From positions 937-64,936 of the forward strand of contig CAYURP010000002.1 of NCBI GenBank assembly GCA_964447175.1: DNA of 64,000 nt, given 5' to 3'. How positions within the stretch are numbered: the stretch's first letter is position 1; each line of letters starts with the position of its first letter. The notes beneath the pieces were generated by a model, which made no database searches, was not told the DNA's origin, and worked only from the letters and a program-made list of their open reading frames with translations. Both the position numbers and the translations under genes were made by a program. Positions 3,063-50,718 of this stretch are shown here, one piece after another. Source of the stretch: an uncultured Ignavibacteria bacterium. Its GTDB lineage: Bacteria > Zixibacteria > MSB-5A5 > SM23-73-2.

Positions 3063-3159
3063 AATAAGAGAGCGGGAGGAGACAAGCTCCTCCCCTACGC
3101 TTAAGTCAGGCTCTTGAAATCGGCTTGCGTAATATTCTAATTCACAGGTAAATTTTACG

Positions 3160-3414: not shown

Positions 3415-4890
3415 ATGAGAGCTCTGAGAATGTTGTTTTTTGTTGGGTTAGCTTTCATCTTTGTTTGCTCATCTTTGATTTATGCTGGTGTGCCCCAGAT
3501 GATTAATTATCAGGGGAAAATAACTACGCCTGCAGGGGCTTTAATAGATACAACTATCGGAATGATATTCACCATTTATGACGACAGCACTTCGGGTAAT
3601 ATCTTTTGGGCAGATACCTTAGGTTCAGTGTCGGTTGAAAAAGGTATGTTCAGCGTCCTGTTAGGGAGTGTGAATCCGATTCCGGACTCTGTTTTCGATG
3701 GAAATATCAGATATTTAGGTATCAAAGTGGGTGGCGATGCGGAGATGACTCCCAGGAAAGTTATTGCCAGCGTGGCTTATGCTTACCGGGCAGGCTCAGC
3801 AGATTTAAGTGCTCATAATCACTGGGGCGAAACCTGGGCTGGTGCAGACACAGGATTGATCCTTACCAGTACCGGCGTATCCAGAGACAACGGATCTGTT
3901 GGAGTCTCCGGTAGAGGCGTTAATTCAGGAGTGCATGGAAGTAGTAATACCGGCAGCGGTGTTTCCGGAAGTAGCCAGGATGGACGCGGGGTCAGTGGTT
4001 CCAGCAATAATGGCACCGGTGTCCAAGGAACTAGCCCCAATGGACAGGGAGTCGAAGGTGCAAGCACCTGGGGCACTGGGGTTTCAGGTACCAGCAACAA
4101 CGGCAATGGAGTGTCTGGTTCCAGCACTAACAGTAATGGAGTGCAAGGGTCCAGCGGTAGCAACACCGGCTCCGGAGTAAGAGGAACCAACAGCTCTCCT
4201 GAGGGAGATGGAGTGAGTGGCCAAGCTGATGGGGGTGACGGCGTTCATGGCGAAAGCAATACTGGTGATGGTGTCTCGGGTGGCAGCAATTCGGGGATTG
4301 GCGTTCACGGTGCAAGTGCTGAGGGCACCGGAGTTTCGGGTGAAAGCGTAAACGGCACAGGTGTTCATGCAAGCTCAGCCTTCGGAACCGCCCTGGTGGT
4401 TGATGGCTCCAGTATATTTAACTGTAACGCTCAGTTCAACTGTAATGTAACAGTCGCAGGAACTCTTGAGGTGAAAAAACTCACAGCATGGGAAATCGAC
4501 CCTATCATCCTTGAGTTATTCAAAGTAGACCCATCTCAGGTTTACCAAAAAGGAGATGTTCTGGTTATCGATCCTGAAAGTGATACTTACAAGCTTTGTG
4601 ATGCTGCAAACGACACAAAGGTTTCCGGTGTTGTCTGGAATGCAGACCCGAACGAGAATGGTGAGGTTCCAGTTGTGATTCTGGGAGCTAAGACTCCATC
4701 CAATACCGTTTACATAAAAGTAGATGTCAGCTATGCTACCATTCAGAGAGGTGATTTGCTAACATCATCTCCAACCCGAGGACATGCTATGAAGGCGACC
4801 GAGCCCAAGCCTGGATCCATAATAGGCAAGGCGCTTGAACCATTTAACTCAGGGAAAGGTCTTATAAAAGTCTTTGTCAACTTGCACTAA
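3415..4890 (+). CDS. secreted repeat protein: conserved N-terminal domain + ~15 Gly-rich decapeptide repeats (G-x-G-V-x-G-x-S-x-x) + C-terminal beta-rich domain
   Basis: 491 aa; signal peptide; RBS aaggag 6 nt upstream. The N-terminal ~110 aa are about 85% identical to the next gene. Residues 159-324 are a decapeptide array. Confidence 0.75.
   Translation: MRALRMLFFVGLAFIFVCSSLIYAGVPQMINYQGKITTPAGALIDTTIGMIFTIYDDSTSGNIFWADTLGSVSVEKGMFSVLLGSVNPIPDSVFDGNIRYLGIKVGGDAEMTPRKVIASVAYAYRAGSADLSAHNHWGETWAGADTGLILTSTGVSRDNGSVGVSGRGVNSGVHGSSNTGSGVSGSSQDGRGVSGSSNNGTGVQGTSPNGQGVEGASTWGTGVSGTSNNGNGVSGSSTNSNGVQGSSGSNTGSGVRGTNSSPEGDGVSGQADGGDGVHGESNTGDGVSGGSNSGIGVHGASAEGTGVSGESVNGTGVHASSAFGTALVVDGSSIFNCNAQFNCNVTVAGTLEVKKLTAWEIDPIILELFKVDPSQVYQKGDVLVIDPESDTYKLCDAANDTKVSGVVWNADPNENGEVPVVILGAKTPSNTVYIKVDVSYATIQRGDLLTSSPTRGHAMKATEPKPGSIIGKALEPFNSGKGLIKVFVNLH
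3889..4386 (+). repeat. intragenic tandem 30-nt (10-aa) Gly/Ser/Val repeat array
   Basis: SGVHGSSNTG / SGVSGSSQDG / RGVSGSSNNG ... about 15 units. It generates several spurious antisense ORFs. Confidence 0.85.
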
Positions 4891-4954
4891 GATACTACTA
4901 ATCAAAATGACCGTATGAGCCTATCAAGTTTAAAAAAACCAAAGGAGTAACATC

Positions 4955-6952
4955 ATGAGATGTAGAAGTGTAGTTTTTTGGATGATAGGAGTTTTAATAC
5001 TCCTACTTTGCTCTATTTCATCTGCTGGCGTGCCACAGATGATAAATTATCAGGGGAAGGTAACTACGCCCTCAGGTGCTTTAATAGATACGACTATCGG
5101 AATGATATTCACCATTTATGATGACAGCACTACGGGTAATACCCTGTGGGCAGATACCTTGAGTTCGGTTGCGGTTCAAAAAGGGATTTTCAACGTTTTG
5201 CTGGGCAGTGGAAATCCCATTCCCGATTCGGTTTTTGATGGCAATATTAGATATTTAGGTACCAAGGTGGGTAGCGATGCGGAGATGACTCCCAGGAAAG
5301 CGATGGTGAGTGTAGCTTATGCCTACCGTGCCGGAACTGCAGACGGAGGTGGCGGAGGAAGCTGTGGCTGGGTAGATGATGGTGTGGTTGTCAGGCTGGA
5401 GACCAACACAGATAATGTGGGAATCGGAACCACCAGTCCGGGAGCGAATCTGGACATCGTTTCCACAAATCCGAATCTTCGTGTGGGCACTTCATCTGGT
5501 TCCCCGGTTATTACTCTAGATAAAGCTTCAGGCTTTTGGGGATATCTGGAATTCAGAGATGCCGGAGCATCCAGGTGGCAAGCAGGCGTAACAAATAGCA
5601 ACGATTATTACATCCTGAACTGGCCATCTTCTAAATATGTTTTCTATGCCAATAGCGCAGGTAATGTGGGCATCGGAACCACCAGTCCCGATGAGAGATT
5701 ACATATTGTTGGAAACATCAAGATGGTTGATGGAAATCAAGCAGCAGGCTATATCTTGACTTCTGATGCAAATGGTGTGGGAACTTGGCAGGCAGCATCG
5801 GGTGGTATTGGTGGTAGTGGTGCAACTAATTATCTCCCGAAATTCACAGGCTCTACCACCCTTGGCAACTCTGTGTTCTACGAAAACGGAGGGAAAATAG
5901 GTCTTGGAACCACCAGCCCGGGTGCAGATCTGGACATTGTTTCCACAAATCCGAATCTCAGGCTGAGCACAACATCTGGTTCTCCAGTCATCACCCTGGA
6001 TAAAGCTTCTGGCTACACATCCATACTCGAATTCCGTGAGGGTGGAGCTTCCAAGTGGCAGGCGGGAGTATCGACTACCAACGATTATTACATCTTAAAC
6101 TGGCCTGCTTCCAAATATGTTTTCTTTGCTAACAGCGCAGGTGACGTTGGTATCGGGACCACCAGTCCAAGTGAGAAACTTACTGTTAATGGTGACATCG
6201 ATATGATACAGGGCCAATCACGGATTCACGGCACAGGAGAGATAAGTTTTGACTGGTCTGCAGGAAGTACCTACGACAATCCCAGTCTTCATGGTTTTGA
6301 ATCTAAAGATGAAGCAGGAACCTGGGGAGATGAAATCAGGATAAATAGTATGAATGATATAATCAACACGGTTGATGCAAATGATAATGACGCAACGTCT
6401 TATTTCAAGGTTCAACATCACTCAACCGGAGATGGTGAGGATCTTTTCTGGGTGCGTTCAAGTGATGGTTATGCATATCACAAAAGCAGGTTGGGAATAG
6501 GCACCACCAGTCCGGGAGTTGATCTGGACATCGTTTCCACAAACCCGAATCTCAGACTGAGCACCACATCTGGTTCCCCGGTTATTACTCTGGATAAAGC
6601 CACAGGCTTTTGGGGGTACCTGGAATTCCGAGATGCTGGATCATCCAAGTGGCAGGCGGGTGTAACAAGTGGTAACGATTATTACATCCTGAACTGGCCT
6701 GCTTCCAGATATGTTTTCTATGCTAATAGTGCTGGTAATGTAGGACTCGGAACCACAAGTCCCACCGGCCCGTTGGACGTTAATGGCAATGATATCCGTA
6801 TTCGCAGCTCCCAAACGCCGGCATCTTCTACAGCAGATGGTTACACAGGAGAGATTGCCTGGGATGCCAGCTACATTTATATTTGCACCTCTGGAGATGG
6901 TCCGGGCGGTGGAACAGATAGCTGGAAAAGAGCAGCTTTAAGTACATGGTAA
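4955..6952 (+). CDS. secreted repeat protein paralog: same N-terminal domain + three ~90-aa repeats (IGTTSP...LDIVSTNPNLR...DYYILNWP) + tail-fibre-like C-terminus
   Basis: 665 aa; signal peptide; RBS aaaggag. The C-terminus GEIAWDASYIYICTSG...SWKRAALSTW resembles the terminal motif of many bacterial and phage tail-fibre-domain proteins. This is recognition from memory, not a search. Confidence 0.75.
   Translation: MRCRSVVFWMIGVLILLLCSISSAGVPQMINYQGKVTTPSGALIDTTIGMIFTIYDDSTTGNTLWADTLSSVAVQKGIFNVLLGSGNPIPDSVFDGNIRYLGTKVGSDAEMTPRKAMVSVAYAYRAGTADGGGGGSCGWVDDGVVVRLETNTDNVGIGTTSPGANLDIVSTNPNLRVGTSSGSPVITLDKASGFWGYLEFRDAGASRWQAGVTNSNDYYILNWPSSKYVFYANSAGNVGIGTTSPDERLHIVGNIKMVDGNQAAGYILTSDANGVGTWQAASGGIGGSGATNYLPKFTGSTTLGNSVFYENGGKIGLGTTSPGADLDIVSTNPNLRLSTTSGSPVITLDKASGYTSILEFREGGASKWQAGVSTTNDYYILNWPASKYVFFANSAGDVGIGTTSPSEKLTVNGDIDMIQGQSRIHGTGEISFDWSAGSTYDNPSLHGFESKDEAGTWGDEIRINSMNDIINTVDANDNDATSYFKVQHHSTGDGEDLFWVRSSDGYAYHKSRLGIGTTSPGVDLDIVSTNPNLRLSTTSGSPVITLDKATGFWGYLEFRDAGSSKWQAGVTSGNDYYILNWPASRYVFYANSAGNVGLGTTSPTGPLDVNGNDIRIRSSQTPASSTADGYTGEIAWDASYIYICTSGDGPGGGTDSWKRAALSTW
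5420..6785 (+). repeat. three long intragenic direct repeats (~270-290 nt each; approx 5420-5700, 5900-6185, 6494-6785)
   Basis: Near-identical DNA stretches, e.g. ccaccagtccgggagcgaatctggacatcgtttccacaaatccgaatct recurring. Protein repeats start at aa 156, 316 and 514. Confidence 0.8.
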
Positions 6953-23378: not shown

Positions 23379-24389
23379 ATGGCTAAGAGAATTCTACTAA
23401 CTTTAATCATTCTGACTCTGGTGCTGAGCCACTCCGGCGTGGCAGAGGAATTCTCCAAGGTGGGGAGTGTGGGAGCGCAGTTTTTGAAAATAGGCGTGGG
23501 TGCAAAGTATGTGGGAATGGGTGAAGCATCGGTGGCTTGCGTGAATGATGCCTATGCTATGTACTGGAACCCAGCCGGTCTGACTCAGCTTTCCCAGAAT
23601 AATCTACGCTTCACCAATGTGGATTGGATAGATGATGTCCAGCTGAATTATGTGTCTTTTGGTAAACCCTGGGGCAGCTCCTCTGCCTGGGGAATCAGTA
23701 TGACCGTTCTGACCATGGGGGATATGGAAGTTACCACGGTGCAGGAACCAGAAGGGACTGGCGAGAAGTTCTCCGCCTCGGATTACTCGATAGCTTTAGG
23801 TTATGCCAGAAAACTTACAGATAGATTTTCTCTGGGACTGAGTTTCAAATACCTGTGGGAGAGGATCTCAGAGGAATCTGCATCCGGATTTGCTTTTGAT
23901 TTCGGGACTCTGTTTTTCACCGGCATTCAGAATTTAAGGATGGGTATGAACATCTCCAATTTGGGCCCGGAGATGAAATTAGATGGACCGGAGCTGGATG
24001 TGTTTTATACCCCCTATCCCGAGAACACCAACTATGATGGGGTGAAAAGCAAGCTGGCTGTGGAACCCTATGATCTGCCGCTAACTTTTAGAGTGGGATT
24101 GGCATATGATCTTTACCCATCGGCTGATTCCAGGCTCACTCTATCCAGCGAAGCCAAACATCCCAATGATAACCTGCAGCAGGTGAGCTTTGGCGGAGAA
24201 TGGGTTTGGAAGGAAATGGTGTCCTTGAGAACCGGATATAAGCTGAACTATGAGGAAGAGGGTTTAACCTTAGGGGGTGGATTGAAGCTGAAAACCGGAG
24301 AAAGAACCACCCTGGAGCTGAACTATGCCTGGGCTGATTTCAACCGGCTACAGAGCGTTCATCGCTTTTCTGTGGGTTTTGACTTTTAA
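23379..24389 (+). CDS. PorV/PorQ-family-like outer-membrane beta-barrel (T9SS shuttle-like)
   Basis: 336 aa; signal peptide. The N-terminal GAQFLKIGVGAKYVGMGEASVACVNDAYAMYWNPAGL motif (GxxxLGMG...ayaiYWNPAGL) is characteristic of the PorV/PorQ/UPF0164 barrel family. It has alternating amphipathic strands and a C-terminal F. It is adjacent to a CTD-bearing cargo gene. Confidence 0.55.
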   Translation: MAKRILLTLIILTLVLSHSGVAEEFSKVGSVGAQFLKIGVGAKYVGMGEASVACVNDAYAMYWNPAGLTQLSQNNLRFTNVDWIDDVQLNYVSFGKPWGSSSAWGISMTVLTMGDMEVTTVQEPEGTGEKFSASDYSIALGYARKLTDRFSLGLSFKYLWERISEESASGFAFDFGTLFFTGIQNLRMGMNISNLGPEMKLDGPELDVFYTPYPENTNYDGVKSKLAVEPYDLPLTFRVGLAYDLYPSADSRLTLSSEAKHPNDNLQQVSFGGEWVWKEMVSLRTGYKLNYEEEGLTLGGGLKLKTGERTTLELNYAWADFNRLQSVHRFSVGFDF

Positions 24390-24430
24390 GGTGGACCATT
24401 ATAAAAGGGCGAGGATTTAAAAAGTTAATA

Positions 24431-24517
24431 AAAAAGGTGGCTCCCTTGCCAGGGTAGAGACGGTGGGAATTTAGACAAGGGAGCCTAATTGGGGCTTTAT
24501 GAAGTCAAATCTATAAT
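24431..24517 (+). repeat. copy 1 of ~88-nt structured element (candidate sRNA/regulatory RNA)
   Basis: aaaaaggtggctcccttgcc...aagggagcc...ggggctttatgaagtcaaa. An internal inverted repeat ggctcccttgc/gcaagggagcc forms a long stem. About 80% identical to copy 2. Confidence 0.45.
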
Positions 24518-24677
24518 ATGCTGAACCTTATTTTTTGTCAAGAAAAAATTATACTCGTTTAATATTTTACCAGAGGAATATCAACTCAAGAATTATTAGA
24601 GTCGCATATCAGACCTCGATTCAGGAGAATCTTCAAGAGAAGATCTGGCAATAGAACAACAATATAAAAAAGTATAT

Positions 24678-24765
24678 AAAAAGAGGTGGCTCCCTTGCTA
24701 GGGTAGAGACGCGGGGCTTTTCGCAAGGGAGCCGGTTGGGGCTTTATGAAGTCAAACTAATTATA
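24678..24765 (+). repeat. copy 2 of ~88-nt structured element
   Basis: aaaaagaggtggctcccttgctagggtagagacgcggggcttttcgcaagggagccggttggggctttatgaagtcaaa. Same stem and conserved 3' block as copy 1. Confidence 0.45.
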
Positions 24766-25032
24766 GCTATATAAAAATTTTTGACAATCGGGTAACAACC
24801 TTAATTTCGGTTAAAGATATCCTTTTTTCATAATAAAAAACGACCTCAAATGGAAAAAGTTTGAACTTTTTTAAAGAAAAGACCTCCCCAGGGGTTATAT
24901 CTACCTTGAATCTCCTATACTAGCCTTTTAAAACTAAAAAGCGATTCTCCCCATCATCCTTTATACATAATAATTGCCTTATCCCTTCCTGGAGTGATCA
25001 AATGTTAAGTTCCCTCCTTAGAGATAATAAAA

Positions 25033-25105
<73 letters not shown>

Positions 25106-25537
25106 CAACTTATTCTTTTATCGACCCGATATAAATTTCTTAAACAAAATAAAATATTAAAAATCAGTGTCAAGAGAAAATTGGACTCTTCATATATTTT
25201 AATTGTTACTGGCAGCAACTGAGGACACAAAAGAGTACAACCTTCCATTAAAAAGAGAAGATTTCAATAAATCATAGCCTTAAGTAGAAGGTATCAGGAT
25301 TCGGTTAGACACAATTTGAAGCATATCTATTTGGAGGAGGCCACTACAACAAATGGTTCCTTGGGATAAGGCGGCATTTGTGGAATGCTCACATATTGAA
25401 CATTAACCCTTTTTGGGTATTGCCGATAAACAAAGCAACAGGAGGAGGTGCGTAGTATATTACTGTGAATTTAACTACTTAGTATACCAATATTAAAAAC
25501 CTAAAATTTACGAAAGGAGGTGAAAGGGGTGAAAAAC

Positions 25538-26044
25538 ATGCGCACACTTTTTGAGAACCGAGCTGGTTTTACACTGGTTGAGCTGGCCATCGGTCTGGTG
25601 ATCATCGGTCTTTTGATCGGAGCTATTCTGGGAGGTGCTCAGATGATCAAGAACGCCAAGATCAAAAGGCAGATCAATGACCTTCAAGGTCTCTATGGCG
25701 CAGTGTACACCTATTTCGATAGGTTCCTGCAGCTGCCAGGTGACTATAATGCTGATGGTTATTTCGACATTGACTCCGTGGTGTGGAACGATATCGAGAG
25801 TGAGGAGTTAGCTTACGAGGCCAAGAGAAGCCCGTTTGGAGCTAAATACTATTTTGGTTCCGATACGCTTGCAACACCAGCAGCATACAGGAATGGTAAT
25901 TACGTCCTGGTAAGCCTTCCGGTGGATGTAGCGGAGAATGTGGACAAGCAGCTCGACGATGGAATTGATAGCACCGGTATCGTGACATCAGATAGTCCTT
26001 ATACCGGCACAGGGAAGATAGATGTTTATTACTTCTTAGACTAA
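25538..26044 (+). CDS. type IV (pseudo)pilin with prepilin leader, likely major pilin of the downstream MSHA-type system
   Basis: ATG at 25538 preferred over upstream GTG. Leader MRTLFENRAG | FTLVELAIGLVIIGLLIGAIL is the class-III signal with cleavage G|F and Glu+5. Confidence 0.8.
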   Translation: MRTLFENRAGFTLVELAIGLVIIGLLIGAILGGAQMIKNAKIKRQINDLQGLYGAVYTYFDRFLQLPGDYNADGYFDIDSVVWNDIESEELAYEAKRSPFGAKYYFGSDTLATPAAYRNGNYVLVSLPVDVAENVDKQLDDGIDSTGIVTSDSPYTGTGKIDVYYFLD

Positions 26045-26142
26045 AGGATAATAGTCGATTTCAAGGTGGGGGACACTGCTCAGGTGGTGTCCCCTTCCCG
26101 AATTTCACAGGAAATGCCAGATACTTTTTTTGAGAAAACTAT

Positions 26143-26994
26143 ATGAGCTTCTCATATTTCAGGATAGCTCATGAACACCCCTATAGGGGTTTCACCCTTC
26201 TGGAGTTAGCCATAGTCATGGCCATTTTCGGATTATTGACAGCATCCGCTGTAGGACTTTATGGGGCCATGTCCAAACGCAATCGAGAAGTGAAAACCAA
26301 AGACGAAATGGAAAACATAAGAGAGGCAGTGCTGGGCTATTATCGGAACTATCTGTTTTTACCCGCTCCGGAAGCCGGGTATGTTGTTCCCATTGACGAG
26401 CTGGATCTTCCACCCACAGCCCAGAAGGATGAGATCTATAAAGGAAAGTATTATGCTTACATAGCGACCAATGCCGGGTCACCATTCTCCGAGCTGTTAG
26501 TGGACGGACAGTCCATAGGAGAAACAGCTATAGTTTTGATATCCAGCGGAGCCAACTTGAGATTTGAGGAGGAAAATTCCGATCTCGGCGACGGGGAATA
26601 TTCTCAGGAGGGAACCACTGCAGATTTCGATGATATACTTATATGCCTTTCTGGCAACGAGCTGGGGTCCTCCATTGCTTGGAGAAGGGAGATCGAGGAG
26701 GAAGTGGCAGTGTTGAATCGGGCTGCAGAGATATTGGCGAAAAACGATGATGATGGAGATGGGTTTGTAGATGAGGATTCCACCGACCCTTCAGGCAACT
26801 CAGATAGCTACACTGACTGGGATCTGGTGAGTGGAACAGGGTCTTTAGTCAATGCCGGGCTTTTGTGGAATCCCGATCACATAGTGGACCCATGGGGAAC
26901 TGAATATTGTTGGGATTTTTTTAATCATGAATTTTACTCAGCCGGCTCCAACAGGACCGATGAAGGCTGTGGTGGGGATGATATCTGCCCTTAA
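26143..26994 (+). CDS. larger prepilin-type protein (minor pilin or pseudopilin)
   Basis: 283 aa. ...YRG|FTLLELAIVMAIFGLLTASAV prepilin motif, then an Asp/Glu-rich region (DDDGDGFVDEDSTDPSGNSD) resembling a Ca-binding loop. Confidence 0.65.
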   Translation: MSFSYFRIAHEHPYRGFTLLELAIVMAIFGLLTASAVGLYGAMSKRNREVKTKDEMENIREAVLGYYRNYLFLPAPEAGYVVPIDELDLPPTAQKDEIYKGKYYAYIATNAGSPFSELLVDGQSIGETAIVLISSGANLRFEEENSDLGDGEYSQEGTTADFDDILICLSGNELGSSIAWRREIEEEVAVLNRAAEILAKNDDDGDGFVDEDSTDPSGNSDSYTDWDLVSGTGSLVNAGLLWNPDHIVDPWGTEYCWDFFNHEFYSAGSNRTDEGCGGDDICP

Positions 26995-27009
26995 AAGGAG
27001 CAAAATCAA

Positions 27010-28377
27010 ATGCTTTTGTGCGTGGATTTGACAAGTAAGAAAGCCAAGGTAACCGGGATAAATAAGGGGAAAAGATCTTTCAGAGTTGTGGAATCGCTGG
27101 AATTTGACATATCTAAGCTGGAAACAGCCTTTGGAGAATATCTTAAGAGCAGATCCGGGGACATTGACGAAATAAGGGTATCCGGAGCTCTGGAGAATAC
27201 CTTTCATAAGATCTTCATTATTCCCGATCTGAAGGGAAAGATGTTTACGGCTGCCCTGTATTCTGAGGTGACAAAAGCCTTTGGAGTTATTTATCAATTC
27301 AAATACCTGGATATGGGTGAGGTCCCCGGTCCTGGTAATAAAATTAACCGAAAGATAATGTCAGCAGGTATAAAAAGAGATAACTTGGAAGAGCTCTCAC
27401 GACTGTTTAACGACTCCCCAACAAAACCGGATATGTTTACCACATATCCGGTAGCTGTGCATGCGGCTATTCAAAAACTCGAACTCATATCTGAGGAACC
27501 CCTGGGTTTTCTGGAGCTGGACTATCCCACCAGTCGTATAGTTATCTTCAAAGGGGATGAAATAAGAGTGTCTCGGGAGATCAATGTTCTGGAGGAGGAA
27601 AAAGACCCTGACCGATCAACTCTGGCTAAGGATATCTATCGAACCCTGCTTTTCTACACGGAGAACTATCCTAACGAGTTAGTGAAGAGAATAGTTTTGG
27701 CAGGAAACTCAGCCACCTCAAAAACTGTTGAGGCTTTGACTAAAAAAACAGGAGCTGAGATCATTCCCTTTTCACCCGAGGGCATGATCGAGAAATCAGA
27801 TAAAATATCCCCCGTTCCCCCTGGATGCTTGGGGCTGGCACTGTTAGATCCCGATAGCTTCCCCTTTGAATTCGTACCCATGTCGATTCAGGAGAAAAGA
27901 AAGATAAAAAAGGCATTAACCCTCTCCTTTAGTGCTATTCTGGTTATTGTCCTGATTCTTGCTTTAGCCATTTCTCGGTTTTCTCTGGATTTGAGAAATC
28001 TGAATAATTACCACAGGGGGATTAAAGGTGGAATCAAGATGAAGGAGGATCGGCTGAAAGAGCTGGGTTTGGAGTTTGTCTCTCATTCCATTGAAACCAC
28101 CCAACCCCCATGGTCTGAGGTGCTTCTGGAGATGGCAGCGGCAGTGCCGTCGGGGGTTGTTTTTGAATCCTTTGTCTTGAAGAAGACAAATAAGGTGTGG
28201 AGGGGGGAAATCGTAGGCTTGGCAGAGGGGAAAGACGAGATCAGCTCGCTTTTGCTGGTGGAAAGCTTACAAAATAATTTCAATCAGTCCCCCCTTTTTA
28301 AGGATGCTAAGCTGTTGGAAAAAGAACTGCAAGGTAAAAAAGTTGAGTTCAAAATTAATTATCAATTGAATATGTGA
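27010..28377 (+). CDS. PilM/PilN-like fusion (MshI/MshJ-like): actin-like cytoplasmic domain + TM + periplasmic domain
   Basis: 455 aa with a single TM helix ALTLSFSAILVIVLILALAISRF around residue 300. Position is first in an Msh-like gene order. The family call is inferred from architecture and synteny. Confidence 0.45.
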   Translation: MLLCVDLTSKKAKVTGINKGKRSFRVVESLEFDISKLETAFGEYLKSRSGDIDEIRVSGALENTFHKIFIIPDLKGKMFTAALYSEVTKAFGVIYQFKYLDMGEVPGPGNKINRKIMSAGIKRDNLEELSRLFNDSPTKPDMFTTYPVAVHAAIQKLELISEEPLGFLELDYPTSRIVIFKGDEIRVSREINVLEEEKDPDRSTLAKDIYRTLLFYTENYPNELVKRIVLAGNSATSKTVEALTKKTGAEIIPFSPEGMIEKSDKISPVPPGCLGLALLDPDSFPFEFVPMSIQEKRKIKKALTLSFSAILVIVLILALAISRFSLDLRNLNNYHRGIKGGIKMKEDRLKELGLEFVSHSIETTQPPWSEVLLEMAAAVPSGVVFESFVLKKTNKVWRGEIVGLAEGKDEISSLLLVESLQNNFNQSPLFKDAKLLEKELQGKKVEFKINYQLNM

Positions 28378-28378
28378 T

Positions 28379-48394: not shown

Positions 48395-48466
48395 TTTTCT
48401 GAGAACGATTTTTTTATAATCTACCAAAACGTAATAAAATAAGTCAAGTGAAATCTGAATTAGCAC

Positions 48467-49700
48467 CCTTCGGGCGAAGATAAACTTCGCCCCTACGCGT
48501 TAATTTTATAACCTCTCCCTAACCCTCTCCTTTTAAAGGAGAGGGAATAGGTGAGGATAAACTCTTTTTAGGGAGTAGCCTGGAGTCTTCTGATCCAAGG
48601 TAATGGTGTCCGGGTTGTGAAACCTGTCATTGCGGGTGATAGCGAATCAATCTTCAATTAAGGATGTATGATTCTGTCGGGTCGGGGGACCCGACAGACA
48701 CAGAATTCCCACCTTGCCTCAATGTGGGATTACAGTTTTAACCCCTCCTGACCTCCCCTTATCAGGGGAGGAATATTTTGAGTCCCCCTGACAAGGGGGA
48801 AACGGGGGTTTATTTCGTCCTTGCCATAACTCCGGCCACATTCTCCAAATCCCCAATCAACTCTTTCTTGTCTTTCATATAACTTTGCCTTGATTCTTCA
48901 TTTTCTATTTTCTGGACAATATCATTCACGATTTTGAAAGCCAATTCAAACTCCTTATAACCTGTTTCATAATCTTTGCTCTGAATATGTAATTTTCCCA
49001 AAAAATGATGAATTCTCCACAAAGTTTCCGGCTTTCCTATTATCTTTGGCAATTTCTTTTGATTTTTTCAAATTCACCTAACCTCTGACAAAAGGTAGAC
49101 CAGTGGCCTCGGGCACTGGTCAAAATATACTTTTTCAAGGGTCTCATTCATCGGGACACGAAAAACCAATTTGATGAATCAAACCGCTACGAGAAACCCC
49201 TGTAGATATCACACCTGTCCCGTTCTTGGCGGGATTTATGCGACCCGATGAACTGTTTTAATAACCCCTCCTGACCTCCCCTTATCAGGGGAGGAACATT
49301 TTGAGTCCCCCTGACAAGGGGGGATACGGGGGTTTATTGCGTCTTCAACAGAAACCCTCCCACCCCTCCAAATCCTCCATCAACTCTTTCTTGTCTTTCA
49401 TATAACTTTGCCTTAAAGGGTACACCAGTAGCCTCTGCCACTGGTCAAAATATACTCATTAGCCCAGGCAGGGGTGCTTAGGCTACGAGACTTTTCTTTC
49501 CGAACCTCTCCCTAACCCTCTCCTTTTGAAGGAGAGGGAATGGGTGAGGATGTACTCTTTTCAGCGGGTAGCCTGGAGTCTTCTGATCCAAGGTAATGGT
49601 GTCCGGGTCAACGAAACTCTTTTACGTTGAAATAATGTTATCGTAGGGACATACCTTTAGGTCTGTCCGTGACACCAAAAAAACGGACAGGTCTGAAGAC
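48467..49700. repeat. repeat-dense region made of duplicated modules (A: 48511-48615/49504-49608; B: 48737-48814/49259-49337; C: 48845-48895/49368-49415; D: 49095-49131/49417-49454)
   Basis: Each module occurs twice with more than 85% identity. Module B is a pair of GC hairpins (ctcccct-tatc-aggggag; tccccct-gaca-aggggga) plus a T-run. The region is bounded by the direct repeat gggcgaagRtaaacttcgcccctacgcg at 48470-48500 and 50577-50603. Confidence 0.7.
48810..49052 (-). pseudogene. TPR-like gene fragment embedded in the repeat region (probable remnant)
   Basis: The 80-aa ORF contains TPR-like helices. Its 5' end (module C) is duplicated at 49368-49415 without a continuing ORF. Confidence 0.3.
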
Positions 49701-49805
49701 CTGTCCCTACATTCCTTCATTCTTTTCAAGAAGAAATCCTCTTGACACCTGATGGTTACTTTCTAAGTTATTGAGTCGTACTTTTCTTGAACGTAGAACT
49801 TAACA

Positions 49806-50543
49806 ATGGATAAAAGCAGAGCAAGTTTTAATTCAGAATTTATCAAATCGCCGGAATACCTGAAAGATTTCTTCTCAAGATTGGCTCCGTCTTATAAGAA
49901 ATTCAACAGAATAGCCAGCCTTTTTCTGGATGGATACTGGAGAGACCGGGTGGTAAGCTTTGCCCGAACCGGAATGAGTGTATTAGACCTCTGCACCGGA
50001 ACAGGTGATCTGGCATTTAAGATAGCAAGAAAGATTGGATGGGGTGGAAAGGTTGTGGGCATCGATTTCAGCCCGGAGATGTTGACCCTTGCCAAAGAGA
50101 AAAAAGAGAAGCTGAGCTTGGATTCGAGAATTGATTTTCGGTTGTCCCGGGCAGAGGATTTACCATTTGAGTCCGAAAGTTTCGATCTTGTGGTCTCGGC
50201 TTTTGCCATGCGCAATGTAAGGGCGAATTTGGAAAAAGTCTTAAAAGAGATTTTCAGGGTGCTTAAACCCGGCGGGCAAACAGCGATTTTAGAATTCTCC
50301 AGACCGAAATTTCTCATCTTAAAACTCTTGCACTTTCTTTATTTGAAAACAGTTATACCATTAGATGAGAAAATAGTCTTTGGATCAAAATGGAGCTCTG
50401 ATTATTTAACTGAATCCGTTTTACATTTTTTCAGTCCAAAGGATTTTTGCCACAAGCTTTCCCAGGCAGGTTTTTCAAAGGTGAGATATATCCCCTTGAA
50501 TTTTGGCATTGTTGTGATTCACCGGGCGAGGAAGTGTATCTAA
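49806..50543 (+). CDS. ubiE: class I SAM-dependent methyltransferase of the UbiE/MenG family (demethylmenaquinone/ubiquinone methyltransferase)
   Basis: 245 aa. SAM motif VLDLCTGTGDLAFKIA, VVGIDFSPEMLTLAKEK, and RVLKPGG...ILEFSRP, which closely parallels E. coli UbiE RVLKPGGRLLVLEFSKP. Confidence 0.7.
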   Translation: MDKSRASFNSEFIKSPEYLKDFFSRLAPSYKKFNRIASLFLDGYWRDRVVSFARTGMSVLDLCTGTGDLAFKIARKIGWGGKVVGIDFSPEMLTLAKEKKEKLSLDSRIDFRLSRAEDLPFESESFDLVVSAFAMRNVRANLEKVLKEIFRVLKPGGQTAILEFSRPKFLILKLLHFLYLKTVIPLDEKIVFGSKWSSDYLTESVLHFFSPKDFCHKLSQAGFSKVRYIPLNFGIVVIHRARKCI

Positions 50544-50718
50544 TAATACTTTTATGAACATGGTTGGGATCAATGGGCGAAGGTAAACTTCGCCCCTACG
50601 CGATGCTTTTTCCGTTTTAAATATTTTCATTTACTTATATAATTAAAAAAGCGAGGATGATTACATCCTCGCTTAGCAGATTTACTCGTAGGGTTGGAGT
50701 TTATCTCCACCCAATAAA

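Follow-up and report, generated by a model that had tools for sequence, protein, structure and literature searches.

The LhrC1-5 RNAs of Listeria are tandem sibling small RNAs that carry C/U-rich seeds. In the Firmicutes, RsaE/RoxS is a short RNA in which several unpaired C-rich motifs are followed by a terminator hairpin, and through these motifs it base-pairs with many mRNAs in their G-rich or Shine-Dalgarno regions (PMC6158497, PMC4409812). The C-rich loops of 6C/B11 in the Actinobacteria are seeds that act independently of known chaperones (PMC6486639, PMC10470900). CcsR/cuckoo RNAs of Rhodobacter are small RNAs with multiple C-rich patches, and they also occur as tandem paralogues (PMC4615179). 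The candidate phylum Zixibacteria is uncultured, and the literature that was searched contained no paper mentioning both "Zixibacteria" and "sRNA." In the 64-kb stretch of Zixibacteria DNA analyzed here (the whole stretch is called the window), two related elements, designated A and B, lie between a tRNA-Phe gene and a PorV-like gene. Their sequence features suggest a new small-RNA family of a known kind with a candidate regulatory role.

Two related elements between tRNA-Phe and PorV

The PorV/PorQ-family gene (23379-24389, plus strand; PF19572 PorV) has named homologues from Candidatus Zixiibacteriota and is convergent with element A, which adjoins it. Element B adjoins the gene for tRNA-Phe (GAA), located by ARAGORN and Rfam at 25033-25106 on the minus strand, with its own promoter at 25173-25146. 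The U-tract of A ends 40 nt from the PorV stop codon, and because PorV is convergent, there is no downstream gene on the same strand for A or B to lead into. ARAGORN and Rfam reported only tRNA-Phe near the elements, and neither element matched an Rfam family: Rfam 15 found only two tRNAs in the whole window at the gathering threshold, and in 24300-25200 at E values up to 10 there were chance-level hits only (Histone3 at 19.6 bits vs. 34, RUF6-5, and SscA).

Genes on either side of this region were also inspected. PorV is preceded by a TonB-dependent-receptor-like gene and a gene encoding 889 aa. Divergent from tRNA-Phe, plus-strand genes at 25520-31059 resemble those of type IV pilus or type II secretion systems when their translations are read, with N-terminal prepilin-like leaders and PilM-, PilO-, and secretin-like proteins among the products. 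The far side of tRNA-Phe shows no synteny in lineages L004 and L015.

Positions 24390-24780 contain the two elements, each about 85 nt long with a palindromic stem of 10-11 bp, and the copies have an exact 19-nt block in common. The only two places in the 64 kb with this block, GGGGCTTTATGAAGTCAAA, are 24491 and 24738, and none of 100 dinucleotide-preserving shuffles had two or more matches to it, even at three mismatches. Likewise, GGTGGCTCCCTTGC has exactly two occurrences in the window. A repeat search of the window recovered direct repeats at an offset of about 248 nt, in segments of 54 nt (80%), 30 nt (87%), and 21 nt (76%). The inverted arms of each element, GGCTCCCTTG(C)/(G)CAAGGGAGCC, enclose a loop of 23-24 nt. 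All 11 pairs in the stem of copy 2 are perfect (GGCTCCCTTGC/GCAAGGGAGCC); in copy 1, 10 pairs are perfect, and on the minus strand a U.G and a C-G pair extend its stem to 12.

A first-pass annotation of this DNA had described two structured copies downstream of a PorV-like gene, and both were confirmed where it had placed them. It gave the enclosed loop as about 28 nt, longer than the 23-24 nt measured, and called the loop variable, which is correct for one half; the half adjoining one arm (plus AGGGTAGAGACG, minus CGUCUCUACCCU) is alike in both copies. Other landmarks that it listed exist but have a different meaning. Its A-rich lead is the complement of the minus-strand U-tract, its conserved 3' block is exact over 19 nt but complements the 5' tail of the minus-strand RNA, and the A/T-rich sequence that it saw trailing this block is the -10 promoter hexamer of the other strand. 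It had assumed the plus strand, but the conserved promoters, the U-tracts, and a U.G pair whose plus-strand counterpart would be mismatched (A.C) all point to the minus strand, the same as tRNA-Phe. The tRNA-Phe that it noted about 270 nt away on the opposite strand lies at a distance of 268 nt.

The window contains further repeats. A cluster of repeated, hairpin-rich blocks occupies 48400-50650, including a 73-nt unit (TAACCCCTCCTGACCTCCCCTTATCAGGGGAGG…TCCCCCTGACAAGGGGGA…) at 48739 and 49262 (92% identical), 106-nt units at 48510 and 49503 (93%), and more pairs of 42-49 nt. Positions 49251-49307 gave a weak, chance-level hit (E = 0.31) with the covariance model described below. A short hairpin element, GGGCGAAGATAAACTTCGCCCCTACGCG, is present in three copies (3074-3109, 48472-48507, and 50575-50610) that are 67-89% identical, and could represent a REP-like or terminator-type repeat. 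At 3483-6763 there are direct repeats of 272-300 nt with 77-86% identity, probably repeated domains within coding sequence.

Predicted promoters, anatomy, and folding of A and B

Each element is preceded on the minus strand by a predicted promoter with 11 of the 12 sigma-70 consensus bases. The promoter of B has TTGTCA, a 16-nt spacer, and TATAAT (24787-24760), and the promoter of A has TTGACA, a 17-nt spacer, and TATTAT (24541-24513). Between 24300 and 25300, the sole further promoter-like site precedes tRNA-Phe; it is also on the minus strand and is of the same promoter type. In the seven lineages described below, the B promoter keeps its hexamers, its 16-nt spacing, and its 26-nt distance to the stem (7/7), while the spacer sequence varies. 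The -35 hexamer and 17-nt spacing of the A promoter are also kept in all seven, with a weaker -10 in L015 and L042. Ten of the 14 copies from these lineages score 11/12, and the distance from promoter to stem is fixed at 24-27 nt. The opposite strand has no consistent promoter signal across the 14 copies.

When the sequences between tRNA-Phe and B from the seven lineages were aligned, a region of about 110 nt ahead of the B promoter (24788-24900, minus strand) was partly conserved. It contains A-tracts and the sequences TTCAAAAAAG.TTACAA, AAAAAAGG, and AATTAGrGTnTTTGCCCGATTG, and it may be a regulator site or an UP element. Very short ORFs ahead of this promoter (MKKGYL and a stop) are not conserved in the seven-lineage alignment.

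On the minus strand, both elements have the same order: promoter, about 7 nt, a C-rich unpaired tail (CUUCAUAAAGCCCCAA), a hairpin of 11-12 bp, and a U-tract. The conserved sequence GACUUCAUAAAGCCCCAA, which is the complement of the plus-strand 3' block, starts about 7 nt past the -10 hexamer. With transcript ends predicted from the promoter and U-tract, B would be a small RNA of about 76 nt running from 24753 to 24678. It consists of a 5' tail, GACUUCAUAAAGCCCCAACC (24753-24734), a 5' arm (24733-24723), a 24-nt loop, GAAAAGCCCCGCGUCUCUACCCUA (24722-24699), a 3' arm (24698-24688), and a 3' end of ACC followed by the U-tract, with its last position at 24678. Predicted in the same way, A would be about 77 nt long and run from 24506 to 24430, also on the minus strand, with a 5' tail (24506-24486), a 5' arm (24485-24474), a 23-nt loop, UAAAUUCCCACCGUCUCUACCCU (24473-24451), a 3' arm (24450-24439), and ACC followed by UUUUUU, ending at 24430. 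Overall, A and B are likely to be independently transcribed minus-strand RNA genes.

Each RNA has three unpaired, G-poor, C-rich patches, located in the tail and in both halves of the C-rich loop, which is 23-24 nt long and includes …CGUCUCUACCCU…. The first patch is AUAAAGCCCCAA in the 5' tail. The second, in the first loop half, is AAAGCCCC in B and UUCCCAC in A; AAAGCCCC is present twice in B, with the loop copy an exact repeat of the tail 8-mer. The third patch, CGUCUCUACCCU, is in the second loop half and is common to A and B. The motifs GCCCC (tail), GCCCC or UCCCA (loop), and ACCCU (loop) are all unpaired in both minimum-free-energy and centroid folds. CCUCC, the exact complement of the GGAGG Shine-Dalgarno sequence, is absent from the unpaired patches.

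Other candidate features were rejected. Anti-Shine-Dalgarno mimicry by the 3' ACCUC was ruled out by the presence of ACUUC in four lineages, and a tail-loop pseudoknot was ruled out when inspection found no complementarity. The sole ORF overlapping the elements is a TTG-start ORF of 46 aa (24726-24586), which was discarded; it starts inside the stem, and its stop position differs among relatives.

At the 3' side, 13 of the 14 copies have 6-8 T within 12 nt after the stem, and conservation collapses directly past that run. The U-run is weaker in the L005 copy of A. The terminator features are atypical, with loops of 23-26 nt across copies and 2-3 nt between stem and U-run. A terminator scanner that allowed loops of 3-8 nt made no call; a stem of about -23 kcal/mol and a U-run are present and conserved. 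On the plus strand, no U-tract directly follows the hairpin, and the tails read GGTTGGGGCTTT or TAATTGGGGCTT.

Predicted folding also differs by strand. The minus-strand fold of B has a free energy of -22.8 kcal/mol (z = -2.8), and that of A has -23.1 kcal/mol (z = -3.5) with 12 pairs including the U.G; tail and loop are unpaired in both. The plus-strand z-scores are -1.2 for A and -2.3 for B, compared to -3.5 and -2.8 for the minus strand. One stem pair, 38-65, has two forms, C-G in B and U.G in A; on the plus strand, every A copy has an A.C mismatch at this pair.

Conservation, covariation, and limits of the family

Relatives of this locus were drawn from contigs encoding PorV homologues and from one metagenome pattern scan. 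The order tRNA-Phe → B → A → ←PorV was found in seven diverged Zixibacteria lineages, which are the window, L001/L002/L003/L011, L013/L014/L070, L004, L015, L005/L006, and L042. Among them, PorV is 83-94% identical at the protein level and 77-89% at the DNA level, and its four-fold degenerate sites are 38-65% identical (mean 50%). The B RNA has a mean identity of 97.7%, and its 66-nt core (CTTCATAAAGCCCC…GGAGCCAC) is 100% identical in all seven lineages (recomputed for six), compared to 98.4% for tRNA-Phe, which has two variable positions in the six lineages compared. Mean identity of the A RNA is 80.8%, with changes clustered in the tail, the linker, and the first loop half. The spacer between B and A is 33% identical, the sequence beyond the U-run of A is 35% identical, and the distance from tRNA to B is held at 236-255 nt. 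The weaker -10 hexamers of A in L015 and L042 and its weaker U-run in L005 suggest that A is a faster-evolving duplicate, or that it is partly decaying. The first-pass annotation had considered the pair to be more than a simple terminator and a candidate functional RNA, and conservation far above that of the flanks in seven diverged relatives agrees with this.

Compensatory change in paired positions is a separate matter. In the 14 copies from seven lineages, 9 of the 12 stem pairs are invariant, and none has changed on both sides. The same annotation had stated that the pairing arms are preserved while sequences differ, which describes the loop but not the arms; they are invariant and hence give zero covariation evidence. 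Conservation and covariation in relatives had been its proposed check, and conservation is strong but covariation is absent. An unvarying stem cannot covary, and the absence neither supports nor contradicts the predicted stem. The hairpin, as modeled, rests on thermodynamics (about -23 kcal/mol), on both arms being kept, and on the strand-specific G.U pair. The stem is invariant; therefore, the stem sequence itself is selected, beyond pairing alone.

The limits of the family were explored with several searches. Covariance model R1, built from the 14 copies, identified exactly two copies per locus and no extras in the window or in 12 loci. At PorV loci with 74% identity or less (L007, L008, L009, and L016-L018), nothing recognizable was found downstream of PorV. 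A stem-free two-block pattern searched against 185,579 species genomes (one each) returned one true species (the MAG of L002) and two chance hits. A stem-only pattern returned 58 loci from metagenomes, and only L042 and L070 (on the same contig as L014) were true. Viral contigs, phage genomes, and plasmids had no matches. The earlier suggestion of a mobile RNA module does not fit only two copies in a constant syntenic place, with none elsewhere in the window or in plasmids or phages. Judged from these searches, the family is narrow, roughly at the genus or family level, and is not mobile.

The metagenome search also yielded unrelated elements. Twelve loci (L020, L024, L033, L041, L043, L046, L052, L058, L064, L071, L075, and L076) contain a recurrent element that has the same 10-bp arms and reads …GGCTCCCTTGAGGCTGGCGG…CAAGGGAGCCcc…ctcatgctcacacgggaggacgac. 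At L046, there is a group II intron Rfam hit nearby, so this element may belong to group II introns. Another unrelated family (L026, L030, L032, L065, and L068) has long perfect hairpins, GGAGGCTCCCTTGTGGACCTC…GAGGTCCACAAGGGAGCCTCC, and matched no Rfam family at the gathering threshold.

Proposed function and relation to known small RNAs

We give an even chance to the reading that A and B are sibling trans-acting base-pairing small RNAs, each with its own promoter and its own hairpin and U-tract. That they act by C-rich seed pairing, by analogy with RsaE/RoxS, 6C/B11, CcsR, and LhrC1-5, all of which pair with sequences that are G-rich or close to a Shine-Dalgarno site, is a tentative proposal to which we give slightly less than an even chance. 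Under this proposal, each copy would be transcribed from its own sigma-70-type promoter, and each RNA would probably end at its own hairpin and U-tract, giving about 76-77 nt. The C-rich patches would pair in trans with G-rich stretches of mRNAs (e.g., GGGGCUUU-like, AGGGUAGAG-like, or Shine-Dalgarno-proximal sequences), and pairing would alter translation or stability of the mRNA. The GC-rich stem and U-tail would function as terminator and stabilizer, and might also offer a handle for chaperone binding. Shine-Dalgarno sequences of the GGAGG type are present at genes in the window. When duplexes were predicted with 47 crude gene starts from the window, the best result was no better than with shuffled seeds, and seed complements are not enriched in the window over shuffled background. 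These 47 gene starts are the only ones covered; therefore, targets may lie elsewhere in the genome.

B is invariant over its whole length, including the stem, which exceeds the needs of simple seed pairing. This whole-length invariance would be explained at least as well if A and B were minus-strand RNAs that bind or sequester a protein, or form part of a ribonucleoprotein, with the invariant stem and loop as the recognition surface. All 66 positions of the B core are invariant (tail, both arms, and the 24-nt loop), against a background of nearly saturated neutral sites and of a tRNA-Phe that itself has two variable positions. The same stem is found in both paralogues and in all lineages without any compensatory swaps, and no targets were found locally within the window. 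However, no gene for a partner protein is conserved in the neighborhood, where the far side of tRNA-Phe differs between lineages, and there are no repeated known protein-binding motifs, such as GGA in loops. A also tolerates many changes in the tail and first loop half, a pattern that resembles seed diversification, and overall we consider a protein partner unlikely. More doubtful is a version in which every nucleotide of B, a clade-specific RNA, would be constrained through recognition by a dedicated protein or ribonucleoprotein partner, and A would be a duplicate that is diverging; if true, Zixibacteria would have in B a new RNA of a housekeeping-like or sequestering type.

The position of the elements next to PorV suggests explanations in cis. 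A, and perhaps B, could be a cis-antisense or convergent element that opposes the 3' end of the PorV mRNA or its read-through tail and that regulates how stable this transcript is or stops read-through from reaching tRNA-Phe. The end of A and the stop codon of PorV, on opposite strands, are 40 nt apart, linkage to PorV is found in all seven lineages, and no U-tract follows the hairpin on the plus strand, so PorV transcripts may enter A. We consider this improbable: B is more conserved yet is 290-400 nt from PorV and would be left unexplained, and perfect antisense pairing needs no per-nucleotide conservation of unpaired C-rich patches. The linkage could also be a plain consequence of synteny between tRNA-Phe and PorV, and relatives at 74% PorV identity or less have no element downstream of PorV. 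The location directly downstream of PorV and a palindromic stem that folds on either strand would also suit a plus-strand element of the PorV 3' UTR, such as a terminator, a stabilizer, or a 3'-UTR-derived small RNA. We regard this as very improbable, with conserved -35 and -10 hexamers that fit the minus strand only, neither a U-tract nor a promoter on the plus strand, an A.C mismatch in all A copies, and weaker fold z-scores. The perfect inverted arms of 10-11 bp in two copies might instead reflect a DNA-level palindromic repeat (REP-like or MITE-like, or a protein-binding or recombination site) that has no RNA function. This explanation is hardly credible for only two copies that are always syntenic between tRNA-Phe and PorV, with no others found by the covariance model in 64 kb or 12 other loci, zero matches in phage or plasmid collections, and no flanking target-site duplications; furthermore, conservation is not confined to the palindrome but includes the tail and the promoter hexamers.

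Read as base-pairing small RNAs, A and B are clean candidates for post-transcriptional regulators under very strong purifying selection in an uncultured phylum. They open no long-standing question, and their importance would come mainly from the extreme conservation of B. The 66-nt core of B is a defined probe for metatranscriptome mining.

Intrinsic (Rho-independent) terminators consist of a GC-rich hairpin followed by a U-run, and A and B have this arrangement on the minus strand. However, their loops are 23-26 nt, compared to the usual 3-8 nt, and the hairpins are preceded by a conserved promoter and a 20-nt tail, with no upstream gene to terminate. The hairpin would be the 3' module of a small gene rather than a stand-alone terminator.

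Compared to RsaE/RoxS, A and B also have multiple unpaired C-rich motifs and high sequence conservation, and the likeness is one of resemblance only. Unlike RsaE/RoxS, they are found in a different phylum, have no Rfam RsaE match even at E values up to 10, and have one hairpin with a very large loop and a 5' tail; their motif is GCCCC/ACCCU and not UCCC(C). A and B resemble 6C/B11 in carrying a C-rich loop as candidate seed, but the two hairpins of 6C both carry a C-rich loop (at least 6 C), whereas A and B have a single hairpin, lack an Rfam match, and come from a host that is not high-GC.

Although A and B have no sequence similarity to LhrC1-5 or CcsR, and CcsR is co-transcribed with an upstream gene whereas A and B each have their own promoter, the organization of the locus is similar to both. 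In each case there are tandem paralogues in one intergenic region with a shared stem or terminator, redundant C-rich seed motifs (candidate seeds in A and B), and one copy that diverges faster. As candidates, A and B would extend the "several C-rich seeds" design, described in Firmicutes, Actinobacteria, and Alphaproteobacteria, to the FCB superphylum (Fibrobacteres-Chlorobi-Bacteroidetes group).
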